From: Candidatus Latescibacterota bacterium
Lineage (GTDB): Bacteria > Latescibacterota > UBA2968 > GCA-2709665
DNA length: 64,000 nt
Assembly (NCBI GenBank): GCA_965222075.1
Contig: OZ244937.1
Coordinates: 2,720,001-2,784,000 of the forward strand
Direction of reading: 5' to 3'
Shown: positions 8,538 through 24,480 of the stretch, piece after piece
Position numbering within the stretch: the first letter of the stretch is position 1
How the letters are laid out: each line of letters opens with the position of its first letter
Notes under the pieces: generated by a model
Databases searched by the model: none
Told to the model about the DNA's origin: nothing
The model's input: the letters and a program-made list of their open reading frames with translations, nothing else
Position numbers and translations under genes: made by a program

Positions 8538-8586
8538 AAAAAAAACCGCACAGAACAAGGACTGGGGTCCTCCTTGTCCCGTGCGG
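8538..8586 (-). terminator. Intrinsic terminator on the minus strand
   Basis: Stem CCGCACGGGACAAGGA/TCCTTGTTCTGTGCGG followed by a run of 8 T on the minus strand. Confidence 0.7.
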
Positions 8587-8695
8587 ATAGACGCCCCTCC
8601 TGAATTTGGGATTACAGGGGGAATTCCTATCGGTATCCATCCCTAAGCACCTGCTGCTTAGAAAATAACCTTTCGGTAGATACCCGGGTGCAACT

Positions 8696-8890
8696 GTTCT
8701 TTTGCTCTTGGCCTTTTTCTTGCGCGCCCAAGAAAAAGGCCCAAAAAGAAGGGCGCCGCTCAAGCGCCGCGGGGGCTGCTTTTCCGCGAATTGCCCCCGG
8801 GGTGGAAGCAGAGGCTTCTGCCCTGCGGACCTTTGGGGCGTTCCTGGGCGAAGGCGCTGGAGGAAACCGCGCGGAAAAGCCCCTTCACTC
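8696..8890. repeat. Dispersed ~200-bp intergenic repeat, copy 1
   Basis: Near-identical to 30101-30316 (GCCTTTTTCTTGCRCGCCCAAGAAAAAGGC..GGGGGCTGCTTTTCCGCGAATTGCCCC..CGCGGAAAAGCCCCTTC). Partial inverted copy at 55153-55192. Confidence 0.85.
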
Positions 8891-9032
8891 CGCCCCAAAG
8901 GCGCGGGAGGCGAAATCTGTCAACGCAACGATTTTCATCATCATGGGTGCCCCAGAGGGCGCATGACAACTGCTTGTGAACCAGGCTCAAGGGGGGGTGG
9001 ATCGGCTCTGCGCTCAGGGGGACATTGAACCG

Positions 9033-10217
9033 TTATTCAGCTTGAAATGCGGTTTCGACAGAAAGGGTAGCAAGCGCCTCCCCAACCAGGCGTGCCGCAT
9101 TCCGGATATCCTCGGGGGAGGTGAACCGGCCAAAGCTGAAGCGGATGGAAGCATCGCTTTGTGTTGTCGTCAGGCCGAGTGCGCGAAGTACGTGCGATGG
9201 CTCGGGAATGCCAGACGCGCACGCCGCGCCGGTGGATGCGGCGAGCCGAGGCTGAAGAACGCCAAGGATGTCCTGCGCATCAAAGCCGTCAAAGCAGATG
9301 TTGGCGTTTCCCGGATGGCGCCGATCGCCGATCGTTCCGTTGACGGTGACCGGCGGATTCCCACTTTGGAGCAGACGAACAAATGTGTCGCGTTGGCGAG
9401 CGATCCGTGTGCGTTCCTCGACCGCTTTCTCGTCGGCAATGATCTCGGCAGCCGTTGCCATACCGACGCAAAGCGGCATCGGGACGGTACCGGAACGCAG
9501 ACCGTCTTGCTGCCCGCCACCATAGATCAAGGGCTCGATTGACGCTTTGATATCACGGCGGATGTACAATGCACCGATGCCCTGTGGACCGTACATCTTG
9601 TGCCCTGAAAGGCTGATCAGGTCGGCGTGCGTGGCAAGATCACCCATCTCCATGGCACAAGGCGCTTGCGCTGCATCGCAGTGAAACAGGATGCCGTGAG
9701 GCGCGAGCAGTTCGGCAATCCGCGGGATGTCCTGAATGGTCCCAACTTCATTGTTAACAGCCATTACGGAAAGTAGAAGAGCATCTCCGTCCAGGCGCTT
9801 TTCCAGGGCGTCGAAGTCGATAAATCCCTCCCGGTCCACTCCAATGGTCTCAACGGTGAAACCTTCGCGTTCGGACAACGCGCGCGCTGCCGCTAAGACA
9901 CATTTGTGCTCGATTGCGCTGACCAAAATACGCCGACGGTTGCCCGGCGCGCGGCGTGCAAGGCCGAGCAACGCGAGGTTGTTGGCTTCAGTGGCGCCGG
10001 AGGTGAAGATCACTTCATCGCCGTCGGCGCCTATCAATGCGGCTACGGATGCGGCTGCTTCGCGGACCGCCTTATCGGCTCGCCATCCGAGGACATGATC
10101 AATCGAGTGGGGATTGCCGAACGATCTGCCCCAACAGGGGGCCATCTTTGTCAAGACATGCGGATCAACCGGCGTGGTCGCCTGATAGTCTGCGTAGATG
10201 GTTTCTCGGTTGTCCAT
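9033..10217 (-). CDS. Cysteine desulfurase (IscS/DndA/SspA-like), divergent from the DUF4007 operon
   Basis: YADYQATTP, FTSGATEANN, HCDAAQ, SGHKMYGPQG (PLP Lys), RSGT, STGAACASG (catalytic Cys). Confidence 0.92.
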   Translation of the reverse strand: MDNRETIYADYQATTPVDPHVLTKMAPCWGRSFGNPHSIDHVLGWRADKAVREAAASVAALIGADGDEVIFTSGATEANNLALLGLARRAPGNRRRILVSAIEHKCVLAAARALSEREGFTVETIGVDREGFIDFDALEKRLDGDALLLSVMAVNNEVGTIQDIPRIAELLAPHGILFHCDAAQAPCAMEMGDLATHADLISLSGHKMYGPQGIGALYIRRDIKASIEPLIYGGGQQDGLRSGTVPMPLCVGMATAAEIIADEKAVEERTRIARQRDTFVRLLQSGNPPVTVNGTIGDRRHPGNANICFDGFDAQDILGVLQPRLAASTGAACASGIPEPSHVLRALGLTTTQSDASIRFSFGRFTSPEDIRNAARLVGEALATLSVETAFQAE

Positions 10218-10325
10218 GCTTAGCTCATTTATCATATTTCCAAAATAAAAACAAATACTTATTCCAATAGTATCAGACTTCACCTCTCATTCATATAGCT
10301 ACCGGAGCTTGTCTCCAGTTTGCCA

Positions 10326-10357
10326 TTGACAATACCGAAAAATATCCGTATTGTCAA
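10326..10357. promoter_or_regulatory. Symmetric overlapping divergent promoter / operator palindrome
   Basis: Perfect 10-bp inverted repeat TTGACAATAC-N12-GTATTGTCAA. On each strand TTGACA is followed 17 nt later by TATTGT. Confidence 0.6.
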
Positions 10358-10386
10358 GCTGGACGTTCCATCCAGGCGGAGAGACA

Positions 10387-11352
10387 ATGCTACGAGGCCC
10401 CCTCTACAAAGACGGTTACCAACCGCAGCTATCCGGGCACGAGACGTTTCCGCTCCGATATGGGTGGCTGAAGAAGGCGTTTGATGCGGTGAAGCGGACC
10501 GAAGACGGCACCGACAACCGAGGCGTCTTCACCGGTGACGACGCGATAACCCGTTTCGGCGTTGGCAGAAACATGGTTGCTTCAATACGCCATTGGGCGA
10601 TTGTTTCCGGGGTCATCGAAGAGGTTTCTGGCGAACGACGAATCCGTTGTACGAAATTCGGCGACATGCTATTCGGTGAGGGCAGGCTAGATCCATATAT
10701 GGAGAACCCTGCGACCTCGTGGCACATCCATTGGCGTCTTTGCGGTCGGGCTGAAAAGACGACGTGGTTCTGGGCATTCAACCACTTCCCCGCGCTCTTA
10801 TTCGAACGTGATATGCTGGTCCGAGGCGTCGCCAAGCTGGCAGATGAGAGAGAGTGGACGCGGTCGTCTATGGCTACAATCAGACGCGACGTGTCCTGTT
10901 TTGTGCGCACCTACGTCGCACAGCCTGTGTCGCGGCACGCGAGCTACGAGGACGCTCTCGAATCGCCCCTTACGGAACTCGGTCTTATCAAGCCTATTGG
11001 CCGTCGCGACGGCTTCAGGTTCGTTCGTGGCCCAAAACCGTCGCTTGGCACCGGCGTATTCTCCTGTGCCGTGACCGACTTCTGGTCCCGTTTTTCGAGA
11101 TTTACGAACACCCTATCCTTCGAAGCACTGTCGCACGAGCCCGGCTCACCGGGCAGGGTTTTTCTCCTGGACGAAAATGATCTCGTCGACCTCTTAGGGA
11201 AGATGGAATCTCTTACTGAGGGGATCTACCGGTGGTCAGAGACCGCCGGCCTGAAGCAGTTCATCCAGGAACGCGCACTCACGACCGAGGAAACCTTGAA
11301 CCTGATGGCGGTGGACTACAACGGCTCACATCGGGAGGAGGGGCCTACGTGA
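10387..11352 (+). CDS. DUF4007 family protein (SspB-like)
   Basis: SGHETFPLRYGWLKK, FGVGRNMVASIRHW, DPYMENPATSW, ESPLTELGLI, PGSPGRVFLLDE. Confidence 0.85.
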   Translation: MLRGPLYKDGYQPQLSGHETFPLRYGWLKKAFDAVKRTEDGTDNRGVFTGDDAITRFGVGRNMVASIRHWAIVSGVIEEVSGERRIRCTKFGDMLFGEGRLDPYMENPATSWHIHWRLCGRAEKTTWFWAFNHFPALLFERDMLVRGVAKLADEREWTRSSMATIRRDVSCFVRTYVAQPVSRHASYEDALESPLTELGLIKPIGRRDGFRFVRGPKPSLGTGVFSCAVTDFWSRFSRFTNTLSFEALSHEPGSPGRVFLLDENDLVDLLGKMESLTEGIYRWSETAGLKQFIQERALTTEETLNLMAVDYNGSHREEGPT

Positions 11353-14300
11353 AAGCCTTGGCTGATCGTGTGCAGATAAGCCGTCGCTTCCGGAGGTCTA
11401 TCCGCATCGACACGGACCTCTCTGATCCTACAGCTCTGACGGGTTTCATCTGTCCGCGGTCCTTCGCTGTGGTTCTCGAAAGAATGGCTCAGCAGGTCAG
11501 CCAAACGGGACAGGCTGCGTTCACGTGGACGGGGCCGTATGGTTCTGGCAAGTCCAGCCTCGTGGTTGCCCTCAGTGCGGCTCTGAATGGGAATGGCGAG
11601 CTTAGAAATTCGGCTGCGCAGATCCTCGGTGCCCAAACAGCGGAGGCCATCTGGACTGCCTTGCCTCCCCGAACGAAGGGTTGGCGTGTCCTGCCCGTCG
11701 TGGGGAGACGTGATCGACCCGCCCAAGTGGTCGGTGAGGCGATCGCGCGTGCCCGCCTCGTTCGGAATAGCCGGGTTGAGCCGTGGAGCGACAAGGCTGT
11801 CTATGACGTCCTATTGAAGGTCGCCCAAAGGACTCCCCGCACGTTCGGTGGTCTTGTCGTGTTCATCGACGAAATGGGGAAGTTGCTGGAAGGGGCCGCT
11901 TACGAGGGCACGGACATCTACTTCTTCCAGGAATTGGCGGAGATTGCCTCGCGCAGCAACAATCGGCTGATCGTCGTCGGGATTCTGCACCAAGCGTTTG
12001 AAGAGTACGCAAACCGGCTCTCACGTGAGGTGCGGGATGAGTGGGCAAAGGTCCAAGGGCGATTTATAGACTTACCGATCAATGTTGGGCCTGACGAGCA
12101 GCTGGAGCTCTTGGGACGGGCGATAGAGAGCGATCGAAAGCCTCGAAAGCCCAGTCGACTGGTCGAGGAGGTCGCCGCCCTTGCCCACAACAGCATCTCT
12201 CCCAAAAAGCTACAGAAATGCTGGCCGTTGCACCCTATCGTGGCTTGCTTGCTCGGTCCCATCTCCCGGCGGAGTTTCGGCCAGAATCAGCGCAGCATCT
12301 TCGGCTTTCTGAACTCGACAGAGCTGTTCGGATTCCAGGACTTCCTGAGAACTGCCACTGAGCGCGATCTGTACACACCCGAGCTGCTTTGGGATTACCT
12401 GCGGGTCAACCTGGAACCTTCCATTATGGCTTCTCCGGACGGCCACCGATGGGCGATGGCTGTGGATGCCCTGGATCGATGTCACGGGTCAGGCGGTGAT
12501 GAACTACAGATTCGATTGCTCAAGACGATCGGCCTGGTCGATCTGTTCCGAGAACGATCGGGTCTGGTGCCGAGTCTGGAACTTCTGATTCTGGCCCTTT
12601 GCGATCACAAAACTCCAGACATTCAGAAGGCCTTGGGGAAACTCAAGGACGCCTCGCTGGCGATCTACCGAAAGTTCAGCAATGGATACAGCATCTTCGA
12701 AGGAAGCGACTTTGATATCCGGCGATCGGTGGACGAGGCGTATGGAGAGATCGACCGGATCGACTACGTCCGCCTTTCGGCTCTGGCCGGACTTCAGCCG
12801 GTGATTGCCAAGCGACACTACCACGAAACGGGTGCTATCCGATGGTTCGATACCACAGTCGTTCCGTTGCGGGATCTGGAGGATGTCGCGGCCAACCGTG
12901 AGCTTAAGAATGGTGCAATCGGGTCCTTTTTTCTCGTGCTGCCCACGCCGGGCGATTCCCCCGAGACCGTCGAGCGAATTGCGGACCGCGCCGTGAGAGG
13001 AGCCGAGGGCGGCGACATCATCGTGGGCATTCCCCAACGTTCAACGTGGACGATCCTGACTTTGGCTCGAGAGCTGTTGGCCCTGGAGCATGTCCGGGAC
13101 AACACGCCCGAGCTTCGAGGGGACCGTGTCGGGCGCCGTGAAGTTGAAGACAGCATCGCAGACCTGCAGAGCCACATCGAGGTTGAACTGGACCGAGCCC
13201 TGGAGAATGCCCTATGGCGCGGCAAGGAACTTGAGGCACAGCGACTTGATCCGGCTGAACTGAACAGTCTCGTTTCTGATTTCGCGAACGCCCGATTCAA
13301 CAAAGCTCCTAAACTGCACAATGAACTGTTGAATCGAATCAAACCGTCCAGCAACGCGATCGCTGCACAGAATCTCCTTCTTCGACGTATGGCCCTCAAT
13401 GAAGGCGAAGAGCGTCTTGGCATCAAAGGCTTCCCGGCAGAGGGTGGCCTGTTCGCCTCGCTGCTGGAGGCCAGCGGCCTGTATCGCCGTTCGCCAGAGG
13501 GATGGCGATTTGTTGCGCCCACGCATGGTGATGACCCGTGCAACCTGGTACCCGCTTGGGAGGAGGCGGCGCAGTTCCTGGAAGCCGAATCCCACAGATC
13601 CGTATCGATTGCAGAAATTTACGATCTCTGGCGACAAGCTCCGTTCGGCATCAAGAACGGATTGCTGCCTATTCTGGCCTTCACGTTCACGCTCTCCAAA
13701 CGCGACGTCCTCGCGTTCTACCGGCAGGGCGTCTTCCAGGCTCGTTTTACAGATCTGGACACGGACCTTTTGGCCAAAAACCCAACTGACATCCAGGTTA
13801 GATGGATGGATTTGTCAGAGGTGTCGCGCTGGCTGCTTTCGGATATGGCAGATATCGTGCGGGATCTGGACGAAGAGAACACGCTGCCGAACCTGGAACC
13901 GATTGACATCGCGAGAGGGCTCGTGGCGATCTATGACCGGCTACCGCCGTGGGTCGGTCGGACGCAGCGCCTTTCGGCCAATGCCAAGCACATTCGACAG
14001 CTCCTGAAGCAAGCCAACGACCCAAATCGGTTGATCTTCGACGACATCCCCCACCTGCCTGCGCCGAGTTCTGCTCGGCAGGCAGGGGTGCTGAACGATG
14101 TTCAAGGTGTTGACGATGAGAAAGCTACCCGGCAGGTTGCAGGCCGGGTTCGCGAGGGCTTGACTGAGTTGCGGCAGGCCTATCCCACGATGCTCAACCG
14201 CATGCGGGAGACGATGCTCGCGGAACTGCAAGTGCCGAATGCCTCGCCATCGATGCTGGCCGAGTTGCGTGCGCGCGCCGACAACATCCGCGAGCTTGGC

Positions 14301-14777
14301 GGTGATCATCGCCTGGAGGCTTTTATCATTCGCCTTGCGCGGTTTGAAGGAAGCGACGAGGACATGGAGGGGTTGGCGGGCATGGCTGTCAACAAGCCCC
14401 CGCGGGATTGGGTTGATCCGGATATCGATCGCGCGGTGGTGGAGCTTGCCGGGATGGCCCAACGGTTTATTCGCGCCGAAGCGTTCGCCCGCGTCAAAGG
14501 CCGCCAGGACAAGCGGCACGCCATGGCCGTGATCGTCGGCATGGGCGGGCAGCCGAAGCTGGTCCATGACGAGTTCGAGATCACTGATCTGGATCAGCCT
14601 GCGGTAAGAGCGCTGATTGACCGCGTGGACAGGACACTGCGAAACAACGGTCAAGAGCGACGAAATATCATTCTTGCCGCCCTGGCCGAGTTGAGTGCTC
14701 AGTATCTGAATTCCGCCAGTACCACGAAACCGAAGGCATGTGCGAGGGGAGGGCAGGTAGGTGAACCAGGCGATTAG
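11349..14777 (+). CDS. Large P-loop ATPase (SspC/BrxC-like)
   Basis: Walker A GPYGSGKSS, Walker B VVFIDEMGK, EWAKVQGRF, WPLHP, FGQNQRSIFGFL. GTG start overlaps the DUF4007 stop. Confidence 0.85.
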   Translation: MKALADRVQISRRFRRSIRIDTDLSDPTALTGFICPRSFAVVLERMAQQVSQTGQAAFTWTGPYGSGKSSLVVALSAALNGNGELRNSAAQILGAQTAEAIWTALPPRTKGWRVLPVVGRRDRPAQVVGEAIARARLVRNSRVEPWSDKAVYDVLLKVAQRTPRTFGGLVVFIDEMGKLLEGAAYEGTDIYFFQELAEIASRSNNRLIVVGILHQAFEEYANRLSREVRDEWAKVQGRFIDLPINVGPDEQLELLGRAIESDRKPRKPSRLVEEVAALAHNSISPKKLQKCWPLHPIVACLLGPISRRSFGQNQRSIFGFLNSTELFGFQDFLRTATERDLYTPELLWDYLRVNLEPSIMASPDGHRWAMAVDALDRCHGSGGDELQIRLLKTIGLVDLFRERSGLVPSLELLILALCDHKTPDIQKALGKLKDASLAIYRKFSNGYSIFEGSDFDIRRSVDEAYGEIDRIDYVRLSALAGLQPVIAKRHYHETGAIRWFDTTVVPLRDLEDVAANRELKNGAIGSFFLVLPTPGDSPETVERIADRAVRGAEGGDIIVGIPQRSTWTILTLARELLALEHVRDNTPELRGDRVGRREVEDSIADLQSHIEVELDRALENALWRGKELEAQRLDPAELNSLVSDFANARFNKAPKLHNELLNRIKPSSNAIAAQNLLLRRMALNEGEERLGIKGFPAEGGLFASLLEASGLYRRSPEGWRFVAPTHGDDPCNLVPAWEEAAQFLEAESHRSVSIAEIYDLWRQAPFGIKNGLLPILAFTFTLSKRDVLAFYRQGVFQARFTDLDTDLLAKNPTDIQVRWMDLSEVSRWLLSDMADIVRDLDEENTLPNLEPIDIARGLVAIYDRLPPWVGRTQRLSANAKHIRQLLKQANDPNRLIFDDIPHLPAPSSARQAGVLNDVQGVDDEKATRQVAGRVREGLTELRQAYPTMLNRMRETMLAELQVPNASPSMLAELRARADNIRELGGDHRLEAFIIRLARFEGSDEDMEGLAGMAVNKPPRDWVDPDIDRAVVELAGMAQRFIRAEAFARVKGRQDKRHAMAVIVGMGGQPKLVHDEFEITDLDQPAVRALIDRVDRTLRNNGQERRNIILAALAELSAQYLNSASTTKPKACARGGQVGEPGD
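14054..14086. repeat. 33-bp palindromic mini-element inserted in-frame in the ATPase gene
   Basis: CCTGCCTGCGCCGAGTTCTGCTCGGCAGGCAGG. It encodes the LPAPSSARQAG segment, and removal gives DIPQVL in frame. Confidence 0.75.
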
Positions 14778-15595
14778 AGAAATGCACGTTCTGGGCCTGT
14801 CGGGCGGTCGCGACAGTGCGGCGTTAGCCGTGTACATGCGGCAGAACTATCCCGAGCTGGATATCGACTATTTCTTCACCGATACCGGCAAGGAACTGCC
14901 GGAGGTCTACGAGTTTCTGGTCAAGCTCGAAGGATTTCTGGGTAAGCCCATCGTGCGGCTGAATCCCGATCGTGACTTTGACTTTTGGCTGAAGCAGTAC
15001 AACAACTTCCTGCCGTCGCCGCAGGCACGCTGGTGCACGCGACAGCTCAAGCTCCGCCCTTTCGAACAGTGGATCCGGCCAACTCTTGACAGTGGCGTAA
15101 CCGTTTATAGCTACGTCGCCATTCGGGCGGACGAGGAGTACCGCGAAGGCTATTCGTCCAAACACGACGCTCTTGTCGTGCGGCTTCCGTTCAAAGATGC
15201 CGGCATCGATAAGGCAGGGGTGCTGGAGATTCTGGAGGGTGCGGGATTGGGGCTGCCGAGATACTACGAGTGGCGCACTCGAAGCGGCTGCACCTTTTGC
15301 TTCTTCCAGCAGAAGATCGAATGGGTGCGGCTGATGGAGCAGCATCCCGAATATTTCGAGGAGGCCAAGCGCTACGAGAAGAACGCCGTCGAGCACGGCT
15401 CGCCGTTCACGTGGAGTCAGGGAGAGTCATTAGACGACCTTTCCAAACCTGACAGGGTGGCACAGATCAGAGCAGAGTCGCTTGGAGCGCGCGCGCGCCA
15501 AGCACCATCCTAATCCTCTCCGGCCCGATATGGAGCCTATCGACGTTGATGACCTCTACGGACAGGCGAAGGTCTGTCTGGCGTGTCACAAGTAA
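14761..15595 (+). pseudogene. PAPS reductase family protein (SspD/DndC-like), frameshifted near 15477
   Basis: LSGGRDS PP-loop, DTGKELPE, RWCTRQLK, RSGCTFCFFQ. The ORF stops at 15513, but the +1 frame continues RLERARAK..PNPLRP..DDLYGQAKVCLACHK* to 15595. Confidence 0.75.
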
Positions 15596-15611
15596 AATCT
15601 TAGAAGCCGTT

Positions 15612-16454
15612 TTAAAATTCAGATTTGGGAGCGAGTCTCTTGATCAAAAGGTGAATCATCGCAATGTAAATGAGCGCTTCACTATTTTGTGTCAAGACTT
15701 CATAATCCTTGGAAAGACGTCGAAAATTCAACAACCAAGCAAAAGTGCGCTCAACCACCCAGCGCCATTTCATCACCTCAAACCCCTTGCTTTCTCGTTG
15801 GACTACTTCCAAGTCAATTTTGTGAGTCTGCTTCAAACTTGAAACCCACGCCTTCAAAGCGTCACCGCGATATCCCCCATCGACCCATAGCTTGCGAAGA
15901 CGCCGCAGGCCATCAGCAAAATAACGTTTGAGCAACTCCATCAGCCCGTCCCGATCGGCCAAGTCAGCAGCAGATACAAACACACAGATTGGCAGGCCGA
16001 GGGTATCTACAAGGAGATGACGCTTGCGGCCATTGACTTTCTTTCCAGCATCGTAACCTTTTATTTTCCCTTGTGTTGCTGTCTTAATGCTTTGAGAGTC
16101 TATACTGCCTGCTGAAGCGGTAGGCTTGCGACCCTGACTGCGTCGCTCCCTTCTATGGAGTGCCTGTTGGATCTTTTGGAAGATGCCTTGTTTGCTCCAC
16201 CTGTTGAAATACCCACCTGCCTGTGCGTCGCACGCAGACAGGTACACGGTTTGCCAGCATCCAAAAGCTCTGGGCAGCATGCGCCATTGGCACCCTGTCT
16301 TGGTCAGATACAGGATGCCGTTGAACACCTGGCGTAGATTGACCGGTGGGCGACCACGACAGCCGAAACGCCATTTGGGTTTGGGCAGCAGCGTGAGGAG
16401 AAGTTGCCATTGCGTTTCGATCAAATTTGTTGGATATTGCCTTTGCGTATTCAT
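15612..16454 (-). CDS. IS5 family transposase
   Basis: TGCQWRMLP, IDSQSIKT, GYDAGKKVNGRKRHLLVDTLG, VDGGY, RWVVERTFAWL..RRLSKDYE. Confidence 0.93.
   Translation of the reverse strand: MNTQRQYPTNLIETQWQLLLTLLPKPKWRFGCRGRPPVNLRQVFNGILYLTKTGCQWRMLPRAFGCWQTVYLSACDAQAGGYFNRWSKQGIFQKIQQALHRRERRSQGRKPTASAGSIDSQSIKTATQGKIKGYDAGKKVNGRKRHLLVDTLGLPICVFVSAADLADRDGLMELLKRYFADGLRRLRKLWVDGGYRGDALKAWVSSLKQTHKIDLEVVQRESKGFEVMKWRWVVERTFAWLLNFRRLSKDYEVLTQNSEALIYIAMIHLLIKRLAPKSEF
16216..16242. repeat. 27-bp palindromic mini-element inserted in-frame in the IS5 transposase
   Basis: CCTGCCTGTGCGTCGCACGCAGACAGG. Removal converts WQTVYLSACDAQAGGYFNRW to the typical WQTVYGYFNRW. Confidence 0.8.
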
Positions 16455-16573
16455 CTTTATCCTTTCGTTTCAGGTGGTTTTGGACAACCTGAATTTGGAT
16501 AGATGAATACGCAATTTCAACTTTTTTCTTTACGCCTCTACCTTTTTAAAACAGCTTCTTAGAGTACAGACGA

Positions 16574-17095
16574 TTGAAACTCGACTCCTTGATAGATTTC
16601 GCCAACGAGGCGACTCAAGAAGTGGCCAAGTATACGGTTTCCGTGACGTTGTCTCCAGCGGAAATGTTAAAGGGCGGATATATCGTTTCGTCCCTTGCTT
16701 GGGACTCAATCAGTTACGGTGGGACAGAGATAGAGAAAGTTCCGAACGACAAACGAGGCGTTTATGCCTTTGCTATCTGTCAACAGAGTGCCGTGTTGCC
16801 GCCGCACGGATACATACTTTACATAGGAATTGCGGGGCGAAATTCGCAGCGTCCTCTCAGAGAACGTTATAGGGACTATCTCAACGAGAAGAAAGTTATC
16901 AGACGCGACAGAATCGCTCGAATGATCGGCACATGGCACAAAGTGCTGCGTTTTTTCTTCGCTCCCGTGGATGATGATGTTTCCTCCGATGAGCTTGTGG
17001 CACTTGAAAAGCAGCTTAATACTGCATTAATGCCGCCGTTTTCGGAAGGAGACCTTACGGCAGACATTAAGCGCAAACGGAAAGCATTTAGGTGA
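16574..17095 (+). CDS. GIY-YIG-like nuclease
   Basis: RGVYAF...ILYIGIAG...LRERYRDY...LEKQL..PPFS pattern. Start codon uncertain (TTG next to the IS end). Confidence 0.65.
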   Translation: MKLDSLIDFANEATQEVAKYTVSVTLSPAEMLKGGYIVSSLAWDSISYGGTEIEKVPNDKRGVYAFAICQQSAVLPPHGYILYIGIAGRNSQRPLRERYRDYLNEKKVIRRDRIARMIGTWHKVLRFFFAPVDDDVSSDELVALEKQLNTALMPPFSEGDLTADIKRKRKAFR

Positions 17096-18348
17096 GAGAA
17101 AAAAAGCTTGAGGAGCTTATCCTGCCTGCCCTTCGTGGTTTGATGGGTGATTGGGTCTACTACTCCTGCCTGATGGATCTAGGAGAGTTGAGTTCAAGAG
17201 TCCATTACGCAGAGGAAATTCATGAGAGTAAGGCTCTCTCTGACATGATACAGCGACGGCTAAGAAAGGGCCGAAGTGCACAGATTGCAGAGTATCTAAA
17301 AACGCAGCCGGAGCGATTTTTTAACTCTCTCGTCGTTGCTACATACGGTGGACAACCCAACTGGTATGCATTATCGGATGTTCGGAATAAGACGCAAAGC
17401 GATGACCTCCGGAACTTGACTGAAGATACTGTTGCTTCGGTCGGATTTCTAACTCTTAGGGGAGACGAGAACCTTTTCGCGCTAGACGGGCAACACCGGC
17501 TCGCGGGTATCAAGAAGGCCCTCAAAGATGGACTGGAGCATGACCCTTACGATGTAGTATCCGTTATCTTTGTGGCTCACAACGTAGAGGAAGGCCTAGA
17601 GCGGACACGAAGGCTCTTTACAACACTGAACAAGACTGCTAGACCTGTATCAAAGGGCGACATCATTGCGCTGGACGAAGATGATGTCATGGCGATCTGT
17701 GTTCGCCGGCTTATCGAAGACACGGATCTGTTCGTAGGTGATCGCATAGCGTTCGTCGCAAGTAACAATATGCCAGTAACAAACACCACAAGCCTGACAA
17801 CGATTGGTAACTTGTATGATCTGCTAGCCGTCCTTTTCAGTCGCGCTGTCTCTAACCTAAAGCGTAGTAAGTCTAAGCTGCAGAAGACGCGTCCTGATGA
17901 CACAGAGTTGGAGGAGTACTTCAAGTATGCAAACGAACTGTTTGTTCAGTTAAAGGCACATTTTGAAGAGTTAGATAGATTCTTCTCTGCTGAGAAAACA
18001 GAAGATGTTGTGAGCGAGCTACGTAGTAGCCGCGGGGGTAACGCTCTGTTCCGCCCTATCGGCTTGGAGATTTTCGTTAGAATCATAGCACAGTTGACAA
18101 ACGACATGTCTCTGCCTGAGGCTGTGCAACACGCCGCTAAATTGCCAAGGAGTCTGAACGAAGCGCCATATAAAGGGCTTATGTGGGACGCAAGCAATAG
18201 AGCGATTCTAAACTCCCATAAGGTCACACTAAGGGAGACCCTCTTGTATATGCTTGGCAGGTCAGGATTTTCCGAAGAAGAGCTTCTAGAAAGGTATCGC
18301 AAAGAAACAGGTGACCAGTCATTAATGCTGCCTGCGAAGGTTGTATGA
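17092..18348 (+). CDS. DGQHR-domain (DndB-like) protein
   Basis: IQRRL, RFFNSLVV, ALDGQHRLAGI, RRLFTTLNKTARPV. GTG start overlaps the upstream stop. Confidence 0.85.
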   Translation: MREKKLEELILPALRGLMGDWVYYSCLMDLGELSSRVHYAEEIHESKALSDMIQRRLRKGRSAQIAEYLKTQPERFFNSLVVATYGGQPNWYALSDVRNKTQSDDLRNLTEDTVASVGFLTLRGDENLFALDGQHRLAGIKKALKDGLEHDPYDVVSVIFVAHNVEEGLERTRRLFTTLNKTARPVSKGDIIALDEDDVMAICVRRLIEDTDLFVGDRIAFVASNNMPVTNTTSLTTIGNLYDLLAVLFSRAVSNLKRSKSKLQKTRPDDTELEEYFKYANELFVQLKAHFEELDRFFSAEKTEDVVSELRSSRGGNALFRPIGLEIFVRIIAQLTNDMSLPEAVQHAAKLPRSLNEAPYKGLMWDASNRAILNSHKVTLRETLLYMLGRSGFSEEELLERYRKETGDQSLMLPAKVV

Positions 18349-18366
18349 ACTTAGGAAGTTTGCATT

Positions 18367-20037
18367 TTGAGTGTAGCCATGAGGGATACAAGACCGCCAA
18401 CAGGATTCTACGGCAGTAGTCCCGGACAGGATCTGACTGAGATTGTGTATCGCCTGAGCGCGGATGAGTTACACGCAGTATTGGGAGAAGATCTCATCTC
18501 ACTTATCGAAGCGCTTGCTAGTCCTGAGGACAGAGACGCGACGCTGCGGAGAATAGCGACTGATATACTGCACGACCGGGCGGACGATCTAATGGCGCGC
18601 AGTGAAATCCGCGAAATCTGCTTGAATTCCACGTCGCTTGATAAGCTAGGGGAGTTAGCGAGCCGATTAGGCGTTGCGAATGTCGATGCGGTTCGTGCCA
18701 TGGACCCAACTCAGGATGCCAGAACTTGGCAAGCCTTTCTCGGATTCTTCGGGATCGACACACGCGGCGCGGCTCCTTTCGCAATGGAACCCGAGCAAGA
18801 AGTCGTTCGGCCCGAGTTTGGCCTGTTCCCGCATCAGCGGCGCGTGGCCGACCGTGTCTGTGAAGCCATTCAGAGTGGTCACGGACGGGTTGTTCTCCAC
18901 TTGCCAACCGGTGCTGGTAAGACTAGAACAGCGATGCACGTCGTTAGCCGGTTTATGACTGCCTCGGAGCCGTCCGTTGTTGTTTGGTTAGCCGCTAGTG
19001 CGGAGCTACTCGATCAAGCGGCCGATGCTTTCCAAAACGCTTGGGCGCGGCTTGGCAATCGGGAGATCGACATCCTGCGTTTTTGGGGAGATTATACACC
19101 GGACCTGTCTAGGACTTCGGATGGCCTAATAATCGCCGGACTACAAAAAATGCATGCGCTTAAGACCAGGGACCACATCGGCGTCTTGCGGCTCGCGAAG
19201 TCAGTCAAGCTCGTTGTCGTCGACGAGGCCCATCAGGCAGTTGCGCCGACCTATCGCAAAATAATCGACATCTTAGTTGAAACCGGTAGGAACAATGCTC
19301 TTGTGGGTTTGACTGCCACACCGGGTCGTACATGGTCGGATATTGCTGCCGATAAGCGGCTCTCGGATTTCTTTGGGGAACGGAAGGTCATGCTCGAAGT
19401 CGAAGGCTGGGACGATCCGGTTTCTTTTCTCATCAATCAGGGCTACTTAGCACGGCCGACCTTTCGATGTCTTGAGGTCGAAGCGACGTCTGAACATAAA
19501 CAGCGTTTGAACAAGGAAGGCGCAGGCGACGATTACGATCCAGCGCTGCTGGAATCGCTCGCGGAGCAAGTAGGTCGAAACGTTATCATTATTGATGAGA
19601 TACGCCGTTTGGTAGAAGAGGGGCATAGACGGATAATATTATTCGGTGCGTCGGTACGGCATGCCGAGCTCTTAGCGGCAGCACTGTCAGCTATTGGAAT
19701 CAATGGGCGTGTTGTAACTAGCAACACGGGAGAGACTGTCCGTGCGCGAATTATCAAAGAGTTTCGAGGGCCTTCCACAAAGCCCATGGTTCTGTGTAAC
19801 TTCGGCGTTCTGACGATGGGATTTGACGCGCCGAACACAAGCGCAGGAGTGATTGCCCGGCCAACAAAGTCACTCGTGTTGTTCAGCCAAATGGTAGGTC
19901 GCGCGATACGAGGACCTATGGCAGGCGGAAACAAAACCTGCACTATTTCCACTGTCGTTGACATCGATTTACCTGGCTTCGGCAACGTGGCCGAGGCGTT
20001 TACTAATTGGGAGGACGTGTGGCATGACCCGCACTAA
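18367..20037 (+). CDS. SF2 DEAD/DEAH-box helicase (ResIII-like)
   Basis: LFPHQ, LPTGAGKT, VVDEAH, GLTATPGR, LTMGFDAP, QMVGRAIRG. Confidence 0.9.
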   Translation: MSVAMRDTRPPTGFYGSSPGQDLTEIVYRLSADELHAVLGEDLISLIEALASPEDRDATLRRIATDILHDRADDLMARSEIREICLNSTSLDKLGELASRLGVANVDAVRAMDPTQDARTWQAFLGFFGIDTRGAAPFAMEPEQEVVRPEFGLFPHQRRVADRVCEAIQSGHGRVVLHLPTGAGKTRTAMHVVSRFMTASEPSVVVWLAASAELLDQAADAFQNAWARLGNREIDILRFWGDYTPDLSRTSDGLIIAGLQKMHALKTRDHIGVLRLAKSVKLVVVDEAHQAVAPTYRKIIDILVETGRNNALVGLTATPGRTWSDIAADKRLSDFFGERKVMLEVEGWDDPVSFLINQGYLARPTFRCLEVEATSEHKQRLNKEGAGDDYDPALLESLAEQVGRNVIIIDEIRRLVEEGHRRIILFGASVRHAELLAAALSAIGINGRVVTSNTGETVRARIIKEFRGPSTKPMVLCNFGVLTMGFDAPNTSAGVIARPTKSLVLFSQMVGRAIRGPMAGGNKTCTISTVVDIDLPGFGNVAEAFTNWEDVWHDPH

Positions 20038-21880
20038 AAACCCTGAACAAGGAGAGCTGTTCGACGCCCAGATCATTCCTCTGCGTCTCGCAATAACAGC
20101 AATGCGTGATTCGGGGTATAAGAACACAGCTTATGCGCTCGCCGAGTTGATCGATAACGCTGTGCAAGCAGAGGCCTCCAGGATCGAGGTACTCTGTATC
20201 GAGAAGCGGGAGACCGTCCGGACTCGGGAACGCAGAAGCCTTTACAAGATTGCAGTTCTTGACAATGGATCGGGCATGGACTCACAGACGCTGAGAATGG
20301 CGCTCCAATTTGGAAACGGGACACACCTAAACGATCGAACGGGTATCGGCCGCTTCGGTATGGGACTGCCCAATGCATCAATCTCTCAAGCTGCAAAGGT
20401 GGACGTTTGGAGTTGGCGAAACGGGTCAGACAACGCGGTCAAGACGTTCATTGACATTGATGAGATCCAGGCCGGAAACATGCATGAAGTTCCACATCCG
20501 GAGCACGATCCTGTTCCCAAAGAATGGCGCGTGTTGTCCGACCACATCGGGCAAAGTGGAACATTGGTGGTTTGGTCGGACCTAGATTCGAGCAGGCTGA
20601 CTTGGAAGAGCGCGAAGCATACCTTTTACAATATGGAACGGATCGTCGGCCGAATTTATCGGCGCTTCATCATCAACCAGTCAGTGACGATCCGCCTTTT
20701 TGCTGCGGAGAACGATAGTGAGCACGTGCTAATTGATCGAAAGGCAGCCTTCAACGATCCACTTTACCTTAATATTCCTCCTTCAATGCCGCCACCGTTC
20801 AACGCGAAACCCATGTTCGAGCACGTGTTCGATGATCCTTATGAGATTGAGCATGATGGCAAAAAGAACACTGTACAGGTCCGCTATTCAGTGGCTACGC
20901 AGGATACGGTCGACGAGGCAGGTACTCAGCAACGAGGCGATACCAAGTACGGCAAGGATGCACGAAACAACATCGGTGTCTCTGTGCTCCGCGCGGGCCG
21001 GGAGATTATGCTTGATCCGGGATGGTGTATAGGATATGACCCAAGAGAACGCTGGTGGGGTGCTGAAGTGGAGTTTCCACCGAATCTAGATGAGATATTC
21101 GGTCTCACAAACAATAAGCAGGCGGCTACCCATTTTACGGAGTTGGCCACAACGGAATGGGAGCGACTCGCAGAAGAGGGCGAGGAGTTTATTGATGTGG
21201 TGAAACGGCTCAAGGAGGATGGAGACCCACGTGGTTGGCTGCTTAGCCTGAGCGACAGTATTAAGCGAAACCTCGAACAGCTACGTCTGATGATCAGGGC
21301 GCAGGGGGCGGGACGGCGGTCTACGAGCAGGATGCGTCACGATGCCCCCGATGATGTTACGAAGACCGTCAATGAAGCGTGGAAGGAGCGCTCTAAGGAA
21401 CGACCCCTCGAAGGAGAGGATACGTCGCCGACAGAAAATGACTTGGATGACATTCGCACCGATCTTACTGAAAATAAGAAATATAGTGCGTCCGAAGCCG
21501 AGACACTTGCTTCTCTGATAAGAGATGCAGATTTAAAGGTAGTCTTTCTGGAAGCGGACTTTCCGGACCCCTTCCACCTGTTCAACGTGGAGATAAAGGG
21601 AAACACGACAGAGATAACCTTTAACAGGAAGCATCCGGCCTTCGACGACATCTTTGGAACCATCGCAACCGTTGATGAGGACGTGAGCGGACTCTCTAAA
21701 GGAGAGGTGATCGAACGCCTGACGAGGGCGGTGAATGCCACCAAGATTGTCTTTTCAGCTTGGGCACGTTACGAGCGTGAAGCAGGCGTGGACCGCGCTA
21801 AGGCCCTGCAGAAGGTACGTTTCGATTGGGGACAAATGGCGGCGAATTTCTTACAAACAGGCGACGATTTCGCACTGTAA
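20024..21880 (+). CDS. GHKL (MORC/Hsp90-like HATPase_c) ATPase
   Basis: ALAELIDNA, DNGSGM, GIGRFGMGLPNASIS, GTLVVW. The start overlaps the helicase end. Confidence 0.85.
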   Translation: MTRTKNPEQGELFDAQIIPLRLAITAMRDSGYKNTAYALAELIDNAVQAEASRIEVLCIEKRETVRTRERRSLYKIAVLDNGSGMDSQTLRMALQFGNGTHLNDRTGIGRFGMGLPNASISQAAKVDVWSWRNGSDNAVKTFIDIDEIQAGNMHEVPHPEHDPVPKEWRVLSDHIGQSGTLVVWSDLDSSRLTWKSAKHTFYNMERIVGRIYRRFIINQSVTIRLFAAENDSEHVLIDRKAAFNDPLYLNIPPSMPPPFNAKPMFEHVFDDPYEIEHDGKKNTVQVRYSVATQDTVDEAGTQQRGDTKYGKDARNNIGVSVLRAGREIMLDPGWCIGYDPRERWWGAEVEFPPNLDEIFGLTNNKQAATHFTELATTEWERLAEEGEEFIDVVKRLKEDGDPRGWLLSLSDSIKRNLEQLRLMIRAQGAGRRSTSRMRHDAPDDVTKTVNEAWKERSKERPLEGEDTSPTENDLDDIRTDLTENKKYSASEAETLASLIRDADLKVVFLEADFPDPFHLFNVEIKGNTTEITFNRKHPAFDDIFGTIATVDEDVSGLSKGEVIERLTRAVNATKIVFSAWARYEREAGVDRAKALQKVRFDWGQMAANFLQTGDDFAL

Positions 21881-21900
21881 CGCGATGGAGGCCGAAGCTC

Positions 21901-22812
21901 ATGATCGCGGACGGCGAACGCTTGAAGGCTCTCTTACAAGAAGCAGAGCGACGAGTTATCTTGTGTGCACCTTTTATTAAGGCGAGGGTCTTACAGACCG
22001 TTCTGTCGGTCGTGTCAGCAGCAGTGCCGGTACGCATCGTTACAAGATGGCAGCCGACCGAAATCGCGGCGGGCGTCAGCGATTTGGAAGTATTGGAGGT
22101 AGCGAACAATCGGCCGAACACCAAACTTGAGCTTTTAGACGACCTCCACGCCAAGCTTTACCTCGCCGACGACCATTGTCTCGTAGGGTCGGCCAACTTA
22201 ACCGGTAGCGCATTAGGCTGGTCGGAACGAAGCAATGTAGAGCTTCTGGTGCCAGCCCAGCCGACCGATTCCGATGTAGCCTTTCTCTTGAAACGGCTCG
22301 AGTCAGCGACGCGGGCGACCTTTACAAAACGCTTAGAAATGGAAGTGGCTGCCGCCGCTTTTGACATTACCGGGCTCGATGAGGGGCAGGAAATGACGGA
22401 GACCGGCGATACGCGTCGATTGGCTTGGCTACCTCGTTGCGCGGCACCGGACAAGCTCTACGAAATATACCAGAATCCGAAGACAACGGTCGTGGTCGAG
22501 GACACGAAAGAAGATGGTCTTGCCGATCTACGGGATCTACTGGTCCGCCGCGGACTGTCACTAACGGACTTCAATGCCATCGTACGAGATACGCTTCTGT
22601 TGATGCCGACGTTCGCTCGTATCATCGATAAGGTGCCGCAAGGCATCACAGATGCCAGTGGCGTTGGTCTTGTCGAGGATGCCCGTCCAGATTTGGTGGG
22701 ACAGGATGCGCGGGTACAGTGGCGCATCATTCGAGATTGGATTGGAGTCTTTTTCCGAGACCAGTTTGAGGTGGCACCGGATTCATTTGTTACCCGTCTG
22801 CGGCCCCCCTGA
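21901..22812 (+). CDS. Phospholipase D-like (HKD) nuclease domain protein
   Basis: LCAPFIK, GVSDLEV, LHAKLYLAD..LVGSANLT..N.E. Confidence 0.8.
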   Translation: MIADGERLKALLQEAERRVILCAPFIKARVLQTVLSVVSAAVPVRIVTRWQPTEIAAGVSDLEVLEVANNRPNTKLELLDDLHAKLYLADDHCLVGSANLTGSALGWSERSNVELLVPAQPTDSDVAFLLKRLESATRATFTKRLEMEVAAAAFDITGLDEGQEMTETGDTRRLAWLPRCAAPDKLYEIYQNPKTTVVVEDTKEDGLADLRDLLVRRGLSLTDFNAIVRDTLLLMPTFARIIDKVPQGITDASGVGLVEDARPDLVGQDARVQWRIIRDWIGVFFRDQFEVAPDSFVTRLRPP

Positions 22813-23004
22813 GCAGGCGATGCCAGCATCATTGCAATCCGCCGGATCGTGCAGGTCAGCGTGGAATCAACGTGCATCGTCGCGGACTCGACCCGAATCG
22901 ATTGTGATCAAGTCGGACAGCCATTGATCCATATTGTTTCTGCTCATCTTCACTGTCCCGACACGGCGAATCACGATCATCGGCGTGCGCTGGAAGATGT
23001 ACTA

Positions 23005-24480
23005 GAGGGTCGGACAAAATTTTAATAGCTGAAAACGCGTAAGATAGCAAAAGGGGACGGAACGCCTCTTCGATTGTGGGATTTAAAGAGTACCCAACTC
23101 AACCCACAGAGAGGAGGTGTTCAAGATCGCCCCGTCTCCTTCAACGTTTGAAGCAGAAGAGACGTTCCAACCGCCGTCGTATTTTCACCAGGATGAGGTC
23201 GCAAAAGATTACACAGCATTTTTTGCCGATTTGGATTTTTCTCCCCTGCCTGCTCTTAGACGAGAAGGCAGAGGCCGTCGGGGTCACCCCCAGAGCGCTT
23301 ACGTCAAAGCGTTGTTGGTCAAAATTAGAGAGAAGCACACCTATTGCACAGATTTACGTGCGTTTCTGGTCAAACATCCGGCCCTGGTTCTGCTGCTGGG
23401 ATTTCGCCCCAAGGTATGTGAGCAATCTCCCTTTGGGTTTGATGTTTCCAAAACGGTCCCGACCGCTCGACATCTACGACGGAAACTCCAGACAATTCCC
23501 AATTTGGCTCTCCAATCGATCTTTGAGGGAACCGTCCGAGACCTGAAAGCGGAAGTGCCACATCTGGGGCAACGCACAGCGTTGGACAACAAACACATCT
23601 ACGCCTTTGTCAAGCAGAATAACCATAAGACCTATGTGAAGGACCGCTTCAATCCCAACTGTCAACCCAAGGGAGACCCTGACTGTCGCCTAAGTGCCAA
23701 GCAGGTCTCCAACCAAGAGCCAGAAAAGCAGCACAAAACCGCAGAAAAGGAGTATCTGTGGGGATATGGCACCTCGGTGGTGGCCACCAAACATCGCATC
23801 TTGGGTGAGTTTGTCCTGGCCGAACACACCGAGCCCTTCAACGTTCGAGATGTCGAATTCTTCTCCATGTTGATGCCAAGGGTTGAAGCACGCCTCGGCT
23901 TCCGTCCCAAGCACTTTGCCGCAGATGCCGCCTACGATGCCTGGTATGTCTACGACTACTTTGCAAAAGTTGGCGGAACGGCCTACATTCCGCTCAACCT
24001 GCGTGGACATCCAATGCCTCGTCTTGGAAGCAATGGGTTTCACATTTGTCAAGACAACCGGGAAATGATCGGCTCTTATACCTATCAGGATCGCACCCGA
24101 GGCTATCAGGCTCAAAAGGAGGTCTGTCCCATCCTCTTTGGCAACCTGCCTGCTACCCAGACCTGTCGGATCAATCATCCACAGTTCCAAAAGGGATGCG
24201 GATGTGTCAAATATAAAAACCTGGAACTGGGCGCTCAGGCACGGCTCTTACTGGATCGCTCTTCAAGGGTTTTCAAGCTTGGCTATGCCTGGCGAACCAC
24301 TACCGAGCGCATCTTTTCTCAGGCCAAGGAACTGGGCATTGAGCGACCTCGCCTGAGAAACCTGAACTCCATACGCAACCACAACACCTTGATCTACATC
24401 GTGATCAACGTCAATGCCCTAAAACGCGTACGTGAAGCTAAACAACGCAAAATTACGGGCTTGTAATTTGTCCGGCCCTC
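23005..24480 (+). mobile_element. Insertion sequence (IS4/IS5/IS1182-type DDE)
   Basis: IRs GAGGGTCGGACAAA / TTTGTCCGGCCCTC, flanked by the direct repeat TGTACTA (22998-23004, 24481-24487). Confidence 0.85.
23117..24466 (+). CDS. DDE transposase
   Basis: GRRGHPQ N-terminus, LDNKHI, WGYG, ADAAYD, RTTTERIFSQAKE. It fills the IR-bounded element. Confidence 0.85.
   Translation: MFKIAPSPSTFEAEETFQPPSYFHQDEVAKDYTAFFADLDFSPLPALRREGRGRRGHPQSAYVKALLVKIREKHTYCTDLRAFLVKHPALVLLLGFRPKVCEQSPFGFDVSKTVPTARHLRRKLQTIPNLALQSIFEGTVRDLKAEVPHLGQRTALDNKHIYAFVKQNNHKTYVKDRFNPNCQPKGDPDCRLSAKQVSNQEPEKQHKTAEKEYLWGYGTSVVATKHRILGEFVLAEHTEPFNVRDVEFFSMLMPRVEARLGFRPKHFAADAAYDAWYVYDYFAKVGGTAYIPLNLRGHPMPRLGSNGFHICQDNREMIGSYTYQDRTRGYQAQKEVCPILFGNLPATQTCRINHPQFQKGCGCVKYKNLELGAQARLLLDRSSRVFKLGYAWRTTTERIFSQAKELGIERPRLRNLNSIRNHNTLIYIVINVNALKRVREAKQRKITGL

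Follow-up and report, generated by a model that had tools for sequence, protein, structure and literature searches.

The 64,000-nucleotide stretch analysed here (contig OZ244937.1, positions 2,720,001 to 2,784,000, of a Candidatus Latescibacterota bacterium; assembly GCA_965222075.1), referred to below as the window, carries at positions 9033-22812 a locus with genes of the SspABCD type, predicted to serve single-strand DNA phosphorothioate (PT) modification. Five further genes follow sspD: orf7, which encodes a protein of GIY-YIG fold; a gene for a DndB-family protein with a DGQHR motif; and genes for a superfamily 2 (SF2) helicase, a MORC-type GHKL ATPase and a nuclease of the phospholipase D (PLD) family. 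Comparison with related loci suggests that the locus is probably composed of the Ssp modification module and two separable accessory modules, the orf7-DGQHR pair and the helicase-MORC-PLD trio, both of them conserved partners of Ssp. Only tentatively can it be proposed that the two are PT-dependent effector modules, both undescribed, the first being a split SspE-like sensor and nuclease for Ssp as well as Dnd systems and the second a MORC-based machine that reads backbone sulfur as "self". The novelty would lie in PT-based restriction-modification with undescribed effector modules, further partners of this kind having been anticipated in print.

The division into modules emerges from gene neighbourhoods. 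One scan of species-representative genomes with a DGQHR profile provided 79 loci, together with up to 10 kb of flanking sequence in either direction. In these, tblastn was used to locate homologues of the window proteins, open reading frames (ORFs) of at least 100 amino acids (aa) were clustered, and representatives of recurrent clusters were named with PADLOC and Pfam. The gene orf7 adjoins the DGQHR gene in 75 of the 79 loci, the two overlapping by 4 nucleotides (nt) in 44 and by 1 nt in 14 of the 75 pairs, and the pair appears to be translationally coupled. Ssp genes lie within 10 kb in 51 loci, 46 of them with at least SspC and SspD and five with partial sets at contig ends; dndBCDE is present in another eight. 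The gap between SspD and orf7 has a median of 37 nt (n=41). The trio was found in 14 of the 79 loci, accompanied by SspBCD in 13, while in the fourteenth (L012) IS110-family transposase genes occupy the place where Ssp genes would be. The initial annotation of the locus had made its reading depend on recurrence of the downstream genes beside the DUF4007 module in other genomes, and such recurrence is evident both in these loci and in the plasmids described below. Given this recurrence, the arrangement can hardly be due to chance.

The same annotation had regarded the five downstream genes as a five-gene effector block. Their contiguity stands; their unity as a single block does not, as orf7 and the DGQHR gene are paired in 75 of the 79 loci and the trio is present in 14, and the trio also occurs directly after SspBCD with no pair between them. 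It is quite unlikely that all five encode one obligate five-part effector complex. Such a complex would account for the eight loci in which the five genes are contiguous on one strand after SspBCD, with the trio directly following the pair as in the window, and for two cyanobacterial plasmids with an analogous order of small protein, DndB-family protein of 768-778 aa, helicase, MORC and PLD. It would not account for the absence of the trio from 61 of the 75 loci that hold the pair, with SspFGH, Pbe-like genes or a protein designated c32 as alternatives, nor for six plasmids in which SspBCD is joined by the trio and no pair or DndB-family gene is annotated. Moreover, four loci have a trio that converges on the pair and so belongs to a separate transcript (in L030, L033 and L068 the ends of the DGQHR and PLD ORFs overlap by 8 nt), and the small cyanobacterial proteins are not detectably related to orf7. 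In a further arrangement (L037), the trio lies after SspD and convergent on it, and the pair is upstream of SspA.

With the pair and the trio taken as separate modules, the content of the segment after the pair was compared across the 46 full Ssp loci. The trio occupies it in 13 loci, PbeA/PbeC-like genes in 12 (and in two more partial loci), SspFGH scoring 750-2577 bits against the PADLOC models in seven, and the c32 protein of ~810 aa in six, while no cassette was recognised automatically in eight. The cassette table is automatic, and L021 and L073 were relabelled for the SspC tree. According to this table the pair is the only candidate restriction gene set in view in eight Dnd and eight Ssp loci, although a Pfam scan disclosed other candidates in three of the latter: a disrupted PbeA-like gene in L021, a diverged SspFGH-like set in L073 and another HATPase_c_3 protein in L065. 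On an SspC FastTree of 46 rows the trio label requires 10 changes against a shuffled mean of 12.3, a value as low being reached in 47 of 500 shuffles, and the SspC closest to that of the window (L001, 80% identity) is accompanied by c32, not by the trio. Because of these label changes and the different cassette of the nearest relative, the slot after the pair is apparently a site of cassette exchange, at which the trio, SspFGH, Pbe-like genes and c32 alternate.

Several observations were made on the partners of the pair in these loci. The c32 protein (L001:11300-13800, L008, L014, L025:11261-13714, L039 and L046) has no Pfam or PADLOC match; its Atlas features lead, at a score of 0.99, to clusters of GHKL/HATPase_c_3 type, one of which has PF13589 in 30% of its members, and it may be a second GHKL-type partner of Ssp. 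Five of the 79 loci, all from Chloroflexota (L020, L028, L032, L036 and L040), have the pair downstream of PDC-M33A/B/C genes, a PADLOC candidate with PAPS-reductase similarity. One PDC-M33 gene has weak SspD/PAPS-reductase similarity together with DUF6339, and PDC-M33 may represent a third kind of sulfur or DNA-modification module that uses the same pair. SspD is ~80% identical to the window protein across loci where SspB and SspC are ~52-58% identical, and thus seems to be much more constrained than either.

A sample independent of the DGQHR gene was obtained by tblastn of the MORC protein against 72,556 plasmids, which returned 42 records, 13 of them with at least 80% query coverage. Twelve records (H1-H5, H7-H12 and H14) with trio-type MORC relatives of at least 31% identity were examined. 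Ssp genes stand beside the trio in 10 of the 12, in Alphaproteobacteria, Cyanobacteriota, Bacteroidota and Spirochaetota, and in six of these 10 (Pannonibacter, Mesorhizobium, Pleomorphomonas, Treponema, Aminobacter and Planktothrix) no pair or DndB-family gene is annotated next to it. The order in Pannonibacter, whose MORC is 64% identical to that of the window, is SspA followed by SspB-C-D-helicase-MORC-PLD. In Aminobacter and Mesorhizobium the trio is convergent with SspDCB; Pleomorphomonas has IscS, three genes of SspB, SspC and SspD size, and the trio; Treponema has DUF4007, a 1201-aa protein, a class-V aminotransferase and the trio; and in Planktothrix SspBCD is followed by two other genes and a trio with an inserted DUF2779 gene. 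The Roseobacter plasmid carries SspABCD-orf7-DGQHR convergent with the trio, and Hymenobacter has SspBCD, a 176-aa protein and the trio. Geminocystis and Trichormus share SspD, a small protein, the DndB-family protein, the trio and a cysteine desulfurase gene. The small proteins of these two were tried as orf7 homologues and rejected (profile E 0.48; BLASTP E 0.022 over 18 residues). MORC relatives at a greater distance (identity of 24-32%, most of them partial matches) are located in other contexts, where the Ssp-linked subfamily reaches its limit. When the entire region was compared with plasmids by megablast, only two short sspD matches were obtained, and the only MORC matches in phage records were two partial GHKL ones covering 31-34% of the query. 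On a pTi plasmid of Rhizobium sp. K1/93 (L093), the pair is directly upstream of SspFGH-like genes and convergent with SspDC; stacked effector modules seem common.

For the trio, the main rival interpretation is independence from PT: it could be a stand-alone defence system, type IV-like or DISARM-like, that shares islands with Ssp and leaves PT unread. Defence genes do cluster in islands, and the window itself holds McrBC-like, KAP NTPase and other restriction-type genes. Distant MORC relatives reside in non-Ssp contexts with DruA or GIY-YIG genes, and MORC-helicase-nuclease operons have been described with no PT link (PMC2292703). We nevertheless consider such independence very unlikely, since Ssp genes accompany the trio in 10 of 12 plasmids and 13 of 14 genome loci from four phyla, gaps are often 11-90 nt or the ends overlap, and in Trichormus the trio is placed between sspD and the desulfurase gene. 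Because sspBCD is present in only about 3% of genomes (PMC12914056), the linkage appears to be far above what co-location in islands would produce.

The pair was characterized at the level of both proteins. The initial annotation had called orf7 a GIY-YIG protein; the fold and the motif support this, while no library hidden Markov model (HMM) does. Alignment of 30 relatives, with identities as low as 23%, shows residues G62, Y64, Y83, G85, R98 and E145 to be invariant and to reproduce the GIY...YIG...R...E pattern. An AlphaFold2 model of orf7 (pLDDT 91, pTM 0.84) finds its best Protein Data Bank (PDB) fold matches in the GIY-YIG domains of UvrC, R.Eco29kI and Hpy188I, with probability 0.99-1.00, TM by target of 0.66 and E 6e-3 for UvrC. 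UvrC GIY-YIG domains also rank first, weakly (E 0.18-1.4), when the orf7 profile is compared with PDB sequences, and for a homologue of 67% identity the structural neighbours in the Atlas are clusters of GIY-YIG proteins, including PF01541 clusters. The relatives of orf7 form 486 clusters, and among the best 120 of these none has a Pfam domain and those named are "hypothetical protein". On the strength of the modelled fold and the motif, orf7 was accepted as a putative GIY-YIG protein.

The DGQHR protein belongs to the DndB family of Pfam, in agreement with the earlier assignment of its domain to DndB of the Dnd systems, which does not extend to DndB itself. It passes the DGQHR domain model TIGR03187 (119 bits, cut-off 58.85) and fails the DndB equivalog TIGR03233 (53.2 bits, cut-off 328), and dndCDE is absent from the window. 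Residues D132-R136 are kept, as are all 69 positions that are at least 95% conserved among 80 homologues. Its relatives comprise 3676 clusters at E <= 0.001 among 8000 candidates scored, and the best 120 of them, from Planctomycetota, Gammaproteobacteria and others, are at least 66% identical. DGQHR proteins linked to orf7 are 42-77% identical to the window protein over the full length, whereas operonic DndB shares only 24-26% identity with it over ~200 aa, as determined in six dndBCDE loci that hold both. The protein thus appears to represent a DndB-family subfamily distinct from operonic DndB and not its orthologue. Because the pair coexists with a separate operonic DndB beside dndBCDE in six Dnd loci, and likewise on a Rhizobium plasmid, it is apparently not simply a DndB regulator. 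Two variants of the pair were noticed. One locus (L061:8141-11275) has two tandem DGQHR genes, one of them lacking the DGQHR motif, and in another (L018:919-2922) an additional orf7-DGQHR pair, diverged to 28% identity, is found beyond SspDCBA.

A DndB-like regulatory role is the chief alternative for the pair. In this case the pair would belong to the modification side, either as a regulator or as an NTPase limiting PT incorporation, with a nicking enzyme that opens DNA for SspBCD. DndB is a negative regulator of PT modification (PMC10853773, PMC12914056), which together with the Pfam family of the DGQHR protein lends weight to such a role. So do the position directly after sspD, closer than that of any restriction cassette, and the constancy of the pair while the cassettes downstream change. 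We regard it as unlikely, however. Coexistence with genuine operonic DndB in Dnd loci means that the pair is no replacement for it, SspB is already available to Ssp as a candidate nickase (PMC9646914), the modification module persists without the pair in loci composed of SspBCD and the trio, and a dedicated GIY-YIG nuclease partner is atypical of DndB regulators.

Products of the trio have motifs of recognised enzyme families. The PDB entry closest to the helicase profile is RadD (E 4e-32); all 14 homologues compared have the Walker A (GAGKT), DEAH and TATP motifs, and 13 of them a fourth motif, while the N-terminal extension of ~150 aa is poorly conserved. The profile of the GHKL protein matches human MORC2 best (E 2.7e-10), followed by MORC4, MORC3, SMCHD1, MutL and topoisomerase VI-B. 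Its N-box, G1 and G2 motifs occur in the window protein and in 12-15 of 15 homologues, the N-box and the G2 box in all 15, and its subfamily has 564 representative relatives at E <= 1e-30. The PLD protein of the window has the full HxK(x)4D(x)6GSxN motif, with the PLDc motif match at residues 107-128 of the long ORF, followed by a C-terminal part of ~170 aa of unknown fold; comparison of its profile with PDB sequences gave nothing significant (best E 0.029). The H, K and GSxN residues are kept in 15 of 15 homologues, and the D of HKD in six. As other nucleases with a single HKD motif do, the PLD protein would be expected to form its active site as a dimer. Judged by these conserved motifs, the trio enzymes look active.

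On the interpretation of the pair and the trio as accessory modules of Ssp, the following mechanism can be proposed. By analogy, the pair would be a split functional counterpart of SspE and DndI, in which the ParB-like DGQHR protein would control the separately encoded GIY-YIG nuclease orf7. The trio would be an ATP-dependent restriction cassette for which the PT marks of Ssp serve as a self label. In this scheme translocation would fall to the helicase and cleavage to a dimer of the PLD protein, and MORC would clamp the DNA or form loops in it. The gene identities, the motifs, the breakage and the linkage conserved across phyla are direct observations; that the modules sense PT, cut DNA, act against phage and interact physically is inferred from linkage and motifs.

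SspE and DndI combine a DUF262 (DGQQR) ParB-class NTPase, stimulated by PT-DNA, with an HNH nickase, and either one alone, together with modification genes, gives PT-based defence (PMC9646914, PMC11662687). DndI is hence a precedent for a ParB-like NTPase and nuclease as a lone PT-sensing effector. SspABCD-SspE loci and the window have SspA, SspB (DUF4007), SspC and SspD of the same kind, with a ParB-class DGQxR protein and a nuclease just after sspD. They differ in that the window has no DUF262-DUF1524 gene, its ParB-like part is of the DndB Pfam family, and its nuclease is a separate protein of GIY-YIG fold instead of a fused HNH domain. As the initial annotation had noted, an SspE-like DUF262-DUF1524 protein is missing: none of 15 ORFs scanned from 6041 to 26003 has a corresponding Pfam or PADLOC match. 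DndB shares with the window protein the DGQHR motif and the Pfam family; the score of the latter below the equivalog cut-off and its pairing with orf7 set the two apart.

SspFGH is a multi-gene restriction cassette downstream of sspBCD, and genuine SspFGH occupies the same slot in related loci. It consists of a Walker-A protein and an FtsK-like translocase (PMC8092258), unlike the helicase, GHKL ATPase and PLD protein of the trio, and it damages non-PT DNA and is toxic without SspBCD (PMC8092258). None of the window proteins matched the PADLOC models SspF, SspG and SspH, which function on proteins of related loci at the scores given above. Pbe systems have an HKD-helicase and a CxC ABC ATPase (PMC10853773). 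PbeABCD resembles the window in coupling a PLD (HKD) nuclease, an SF2 helicase and a large DNA-handling ATPase to PT modification; in the window the PLD protein and the helicase are separate genes, the ATPase is of the GHKL/MORC and not the CxC ABC type, and there is no DndE-like PbeD. The helicase reaches 69 bits against the PbeA model, compared with 829 for a true PbeA-like protein, and there is no PbeC or PbeD match. The trio as a split PbeA system was rejected, the similarity being of a generic SF2 kind only (helicase against PbeA, BLASTP E 1e-5; PLD, E 2.8).

A precedent for the architecture of the trio is found in operons that unite MORC, an SF2 helicase and a nuclease, of HKD or other type, and for which a role in restriction was predicted (PMC2292703). 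These prokaryotic MORC operons of Iyer, Abhiman and Aravind (2008) likewise place a MORC GHKL ATPase beside a Rad25/Res-like SF2 helicase and an HKD nuclease, but they are linked to methylases, whereas the partner here is SspBCD, and the text of that article contains 0 occurrences of "phosphorothioat", "DndB" and "ParB". Enzymes of the SauUSI type and DISARM DrmC share the logic of a PLD nuclease with an SF2 helicase. The helicase profile matches PDB entry 7clg (a "putative helicase" of 953 aa; 3e-11), as does, weakly, the PLD profile (0.06); this entry is taken here to be SauUSI. In contrast to these systems, the locus has split genes and an additional MORC, it lacks the DUF1998 and methylase genes of DISARM, and DrmC matches are weak (E 1.8e-8 and weaker).

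Literature searches, which covered the full text of articles and not their supplementary tables or data, found no paper linking Ssp with MORC. Among the matches listed, papers with GHKL, HKD or phospholipase D never mention sspBCD, and sspBCD and GIY-YIG are mentioned together in one preprint only, where they are unrelated. The reappraisal of Dnd systems by the Aravind group reports URI/GIY-YIG nucleases in Dnd neighbourhoods generally, and its text never mentions MORC (PMC10853773). No description of the orf7-DGQHR pair was found in passages from some of the articles that mention DGQHR.

Several observations weigh against the interpretation of the pair and the trio as PT-dependent partners of Ssp, all activity being deduced from linkage and motifs. 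The DGQHR-fetched loci are a biased sample for the linkage between trio and pair. In 15 of the 79 loci no PT genes are in view within 10 kb, and some pair loci are plainly non-PT, such as L011 with metabolic genes and L079 with CBASS/CRISPR genes; the pair may not require PT, or else PT genes may be present at other places in the genome. On an Agrobacterium plasmid (L084) the trio is directly upstream of SspFGH-like genes, with no SspBCD in 18 kb, and in Cyanobacterium HL-69, whose gene table is incomplete, only iscS is annotated near the trio. With respect to the pair, orf7 has no match in Pfam, PADLOC and NCBIfam and no Pfam family (including PF01541) at E <= 0.001, nor does the fold search give a PDB match at this threshold, the UvrC value cited above being the best. 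The DGQHR protein has no PADLOC SspE match, and comparison of its profile with PDB sequences gave nothing meaningful (best E 0.49, a VPS28 chain); its likeness to the N-terminal domain of SspE appears to be limited to the shared ParB/DGQxR class. One protein of 598 aa (P0241) has an orf7-like N-terminus (61% identity over 86% of the query) fused to a DndB-family domain. It could be a natural fusion supporting joint function, or else a frameshift or sequencing artefact of two overlapping genes. In the trio, the D of HKD is replaced in 9 of 15 PLD homologues. Finally, scans of 15400-23200 yielded 7 promoters compared with 5.2 in shuffled sequence, and 6 terminators compared with 7.7, which is no improvement on the shuffles.

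The gene map of the locus (Table 1) is based on the ORF listing of the window and three HMM libraries (Pfam, PADLOC 2023 models and NCBIfam). Ten features were confirmed, at or close to the coordinates of the initial annotation, whose identification of the upstream genes as an SspABCD-type module is borne out by PADLOC matches to SspA, SspB, SspC and SspD of 338-1262 bits. The short or overlapping junctions it described were also found, as with refined starts the overlaps are 4 nt between SspB and SspC, 4 nt between orf7 and the DGQHR gene and 14 nt between the helicase and MORC genes, and the gaps are 30 nt from DGQHR to helicase and 20 nt from MORC to PLD. It had further suspected that the downstream genes fall outside described systems, and PADLOC names none of the five proteins as a system member, giving only weak generic scores (DndB 52, PbeA 69, MzaB 56, and ZacB or DrmC 32-39 bits). 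The five genes, from orf7 to PLD, have no frame breaks, homologues span 85-99% of their lengths, and catalytic-type motifs are present. There is no tRNA gene in the region, no Rfam match at gathering thresholds in 8000-27000, and nothing relevant in a tandem-repeat search of the region.

Table 1. Features of the Ssp locus and its accessory genes in the window. Likely starts are those suggested by start-codon inspection.
Feature	Position	Strand	ORF opening and likely start	Principal evidence
sspA, IscS/DndA-like cysteine desulfurase, divergent from sspBCD	9033..10283	-		PADLOC SspA 428 bits, DndA 420 bits; Pfam Aminotran_5 E 2e-75
sspB (DUF4007)	10387..11352	+	opens 10351; likely ATG 10387	PF13182 277 bits, E 1.5e-82; PADLOC SspB 338 bits
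sspC, large P-loop ATPase	11349..14777	+	opens 11232; likely GTG 11349, overlapping the sspB stop	PADLOC SspC 1262 bits; BrxC-like 380 bits
sspD, PAPS-reductase-like, frameshifted	14761..15595	+		PADLOC SspD 424 bits; frame 1 stop 15513
IS5-family insertion sequence	15598..16563	-		transposase 15612-16454; NCBIfam IS5 NF033580 224.9 bits, cut-off 110
orf7, 173-aa GIY-YIG-fold protein, unnamed family	16574..17095	+	TTG start	motif and model; no HMM match
DGQHR-motif DndB-family (ParB-like) protein, 418 aa	17092..18348	+		PF14072 93.8 bits; TIGR03187 119 bits
SF2 helicase (RadD/type III Res-like)	18379..20037	+	opens 18367; likely ATG 18379	ResIII 88.9 bits, Helicase_C
MORC-type GHKL ATPase, 618 aa	20024..21880	+	opens 19958; likely ATG 20024	HATPase_c_3 79.6 bits
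Single-HKD PLD-family nuclease	21901..22812	+	opens 21826; likely ATG 21901	PLDc_2 34.3 bits, cut-off 27

The copy of the system in this genome is broken at two places. Despite the strong family match (424 bits), sspD is not intact, as was anticipated when its frame was said to need repair. The ORF at 14761-15513 aligns only to positions 2-239 of the 277-position PADLOC profile, and three-frame translation places the last ~40 residues in the +1 frame, up to a TAA at 15593-15595, with the frame change at about 15473-15480. The out-of-frame C-terminus ends in a Cys-x-x-Cys motif that is kept in homologues. Intact SspD homologues (278-280 aa) are uninterrupted, and those of 279-280 aa, when aligned onto the window by tblastn, are divided between two segments that differ in reading frame. 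An assembly error could also account for the frameshift, which would count against breakage. A GC-rich 16-nt palindrome with a (GC)n run is located at 15480-15503, immediately 3' of the frame change.

The second interruption is an IS5-family element with a DDE transposase and terminal inverted repeats of 20 nt (15598-15617 and 16544-16563, 90% complementary), flanked on both sides by a direct CTTAG that represents the target duplication. It is inserted in the spacer between sspD and orf7, past the stop codon of sspD and with 11-15 nt left to the TTG start of orf7. Disruption of sspD by IS5 was considered and rejected, as the element lies past the stop codon and a separate frameshift is responsible. 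When IS5 is subtracted, the spacer is 19 nt long, and since 18-19 nt is the commonest length in homologues (8 of 41), sspBCD and the five downstream genes once formed one tight array. The downstream genes now appear to be cut off from the ssp promoter by IS5. With sspD out of frame before its Cys-x-x-Cys and IS5 separating sspBCD from the downstream five, this genome probably harbours an inactive or uncoupled system. If the restriction side is toxic in the absence of PT, breakage of the modification gene would be expected to go together with silencing of the restriction genes. The terminal-repeat motif of IS5 recurs in the window as an inverted pair ~188 bp apart at 57686-57873, resembling a miniature inverted-repeat transposable element and with no transposase, and once alone, with one mismatch, at 30450-30464; there are five matches in the window compared with 0 expected.

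Other parts of the window are also rich in defence-type genes, and its G+C content is uneven (0.42-0.71). A KAP-family P-loop NTPase at 24432-26003 matches the PADLOC candidate PDC-S20 (407 bits), its start being overlapped by an IS1182-like ORF at 23117-24466. An AAA_5 and McrBC-like pair of defence type is present at 41890-45035, and the segment 45326-53246 encodes a 913-aa PLD-domain protein, a 515-aa protein and a 1123-aa N6-methylase with a Type ISP C-terminal domain.

The great majority of sspBCD loci, 83.9% of 2,678, are devoid of both sspE and sspFGH, and further restriction partners are expected (PMC8092258). With most sspBCD loci thus having no known restriction partner, the pair and the trio are two concrete and widely distributed candidates. 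Intact copies in culturable strains and on plasmids make tests practical; they include the nine-gene form in Ectothiorhodospira haloalkaliphila ATCC 51935 (L043) and the plasmid copies of Roseobacter litoralis (pROLI83), Pannonibacter phragmitetus (p.BB_2) and Trichormus variabilis ATCC 29413. If confirmed, the proposed roles would widen the catalogue of PT-based immunity, and a split form of SspE and DndI would allow sensing and cutting to be studied as separate proteins. They would also offer a first opportunity to study the biochemistry of prokaryotic MORC ATPases in a system whose DNA mark is defined, and bacterial MORC ATPases would then be effectors of an epigenetic mark, as are their eukaryotic relatives.

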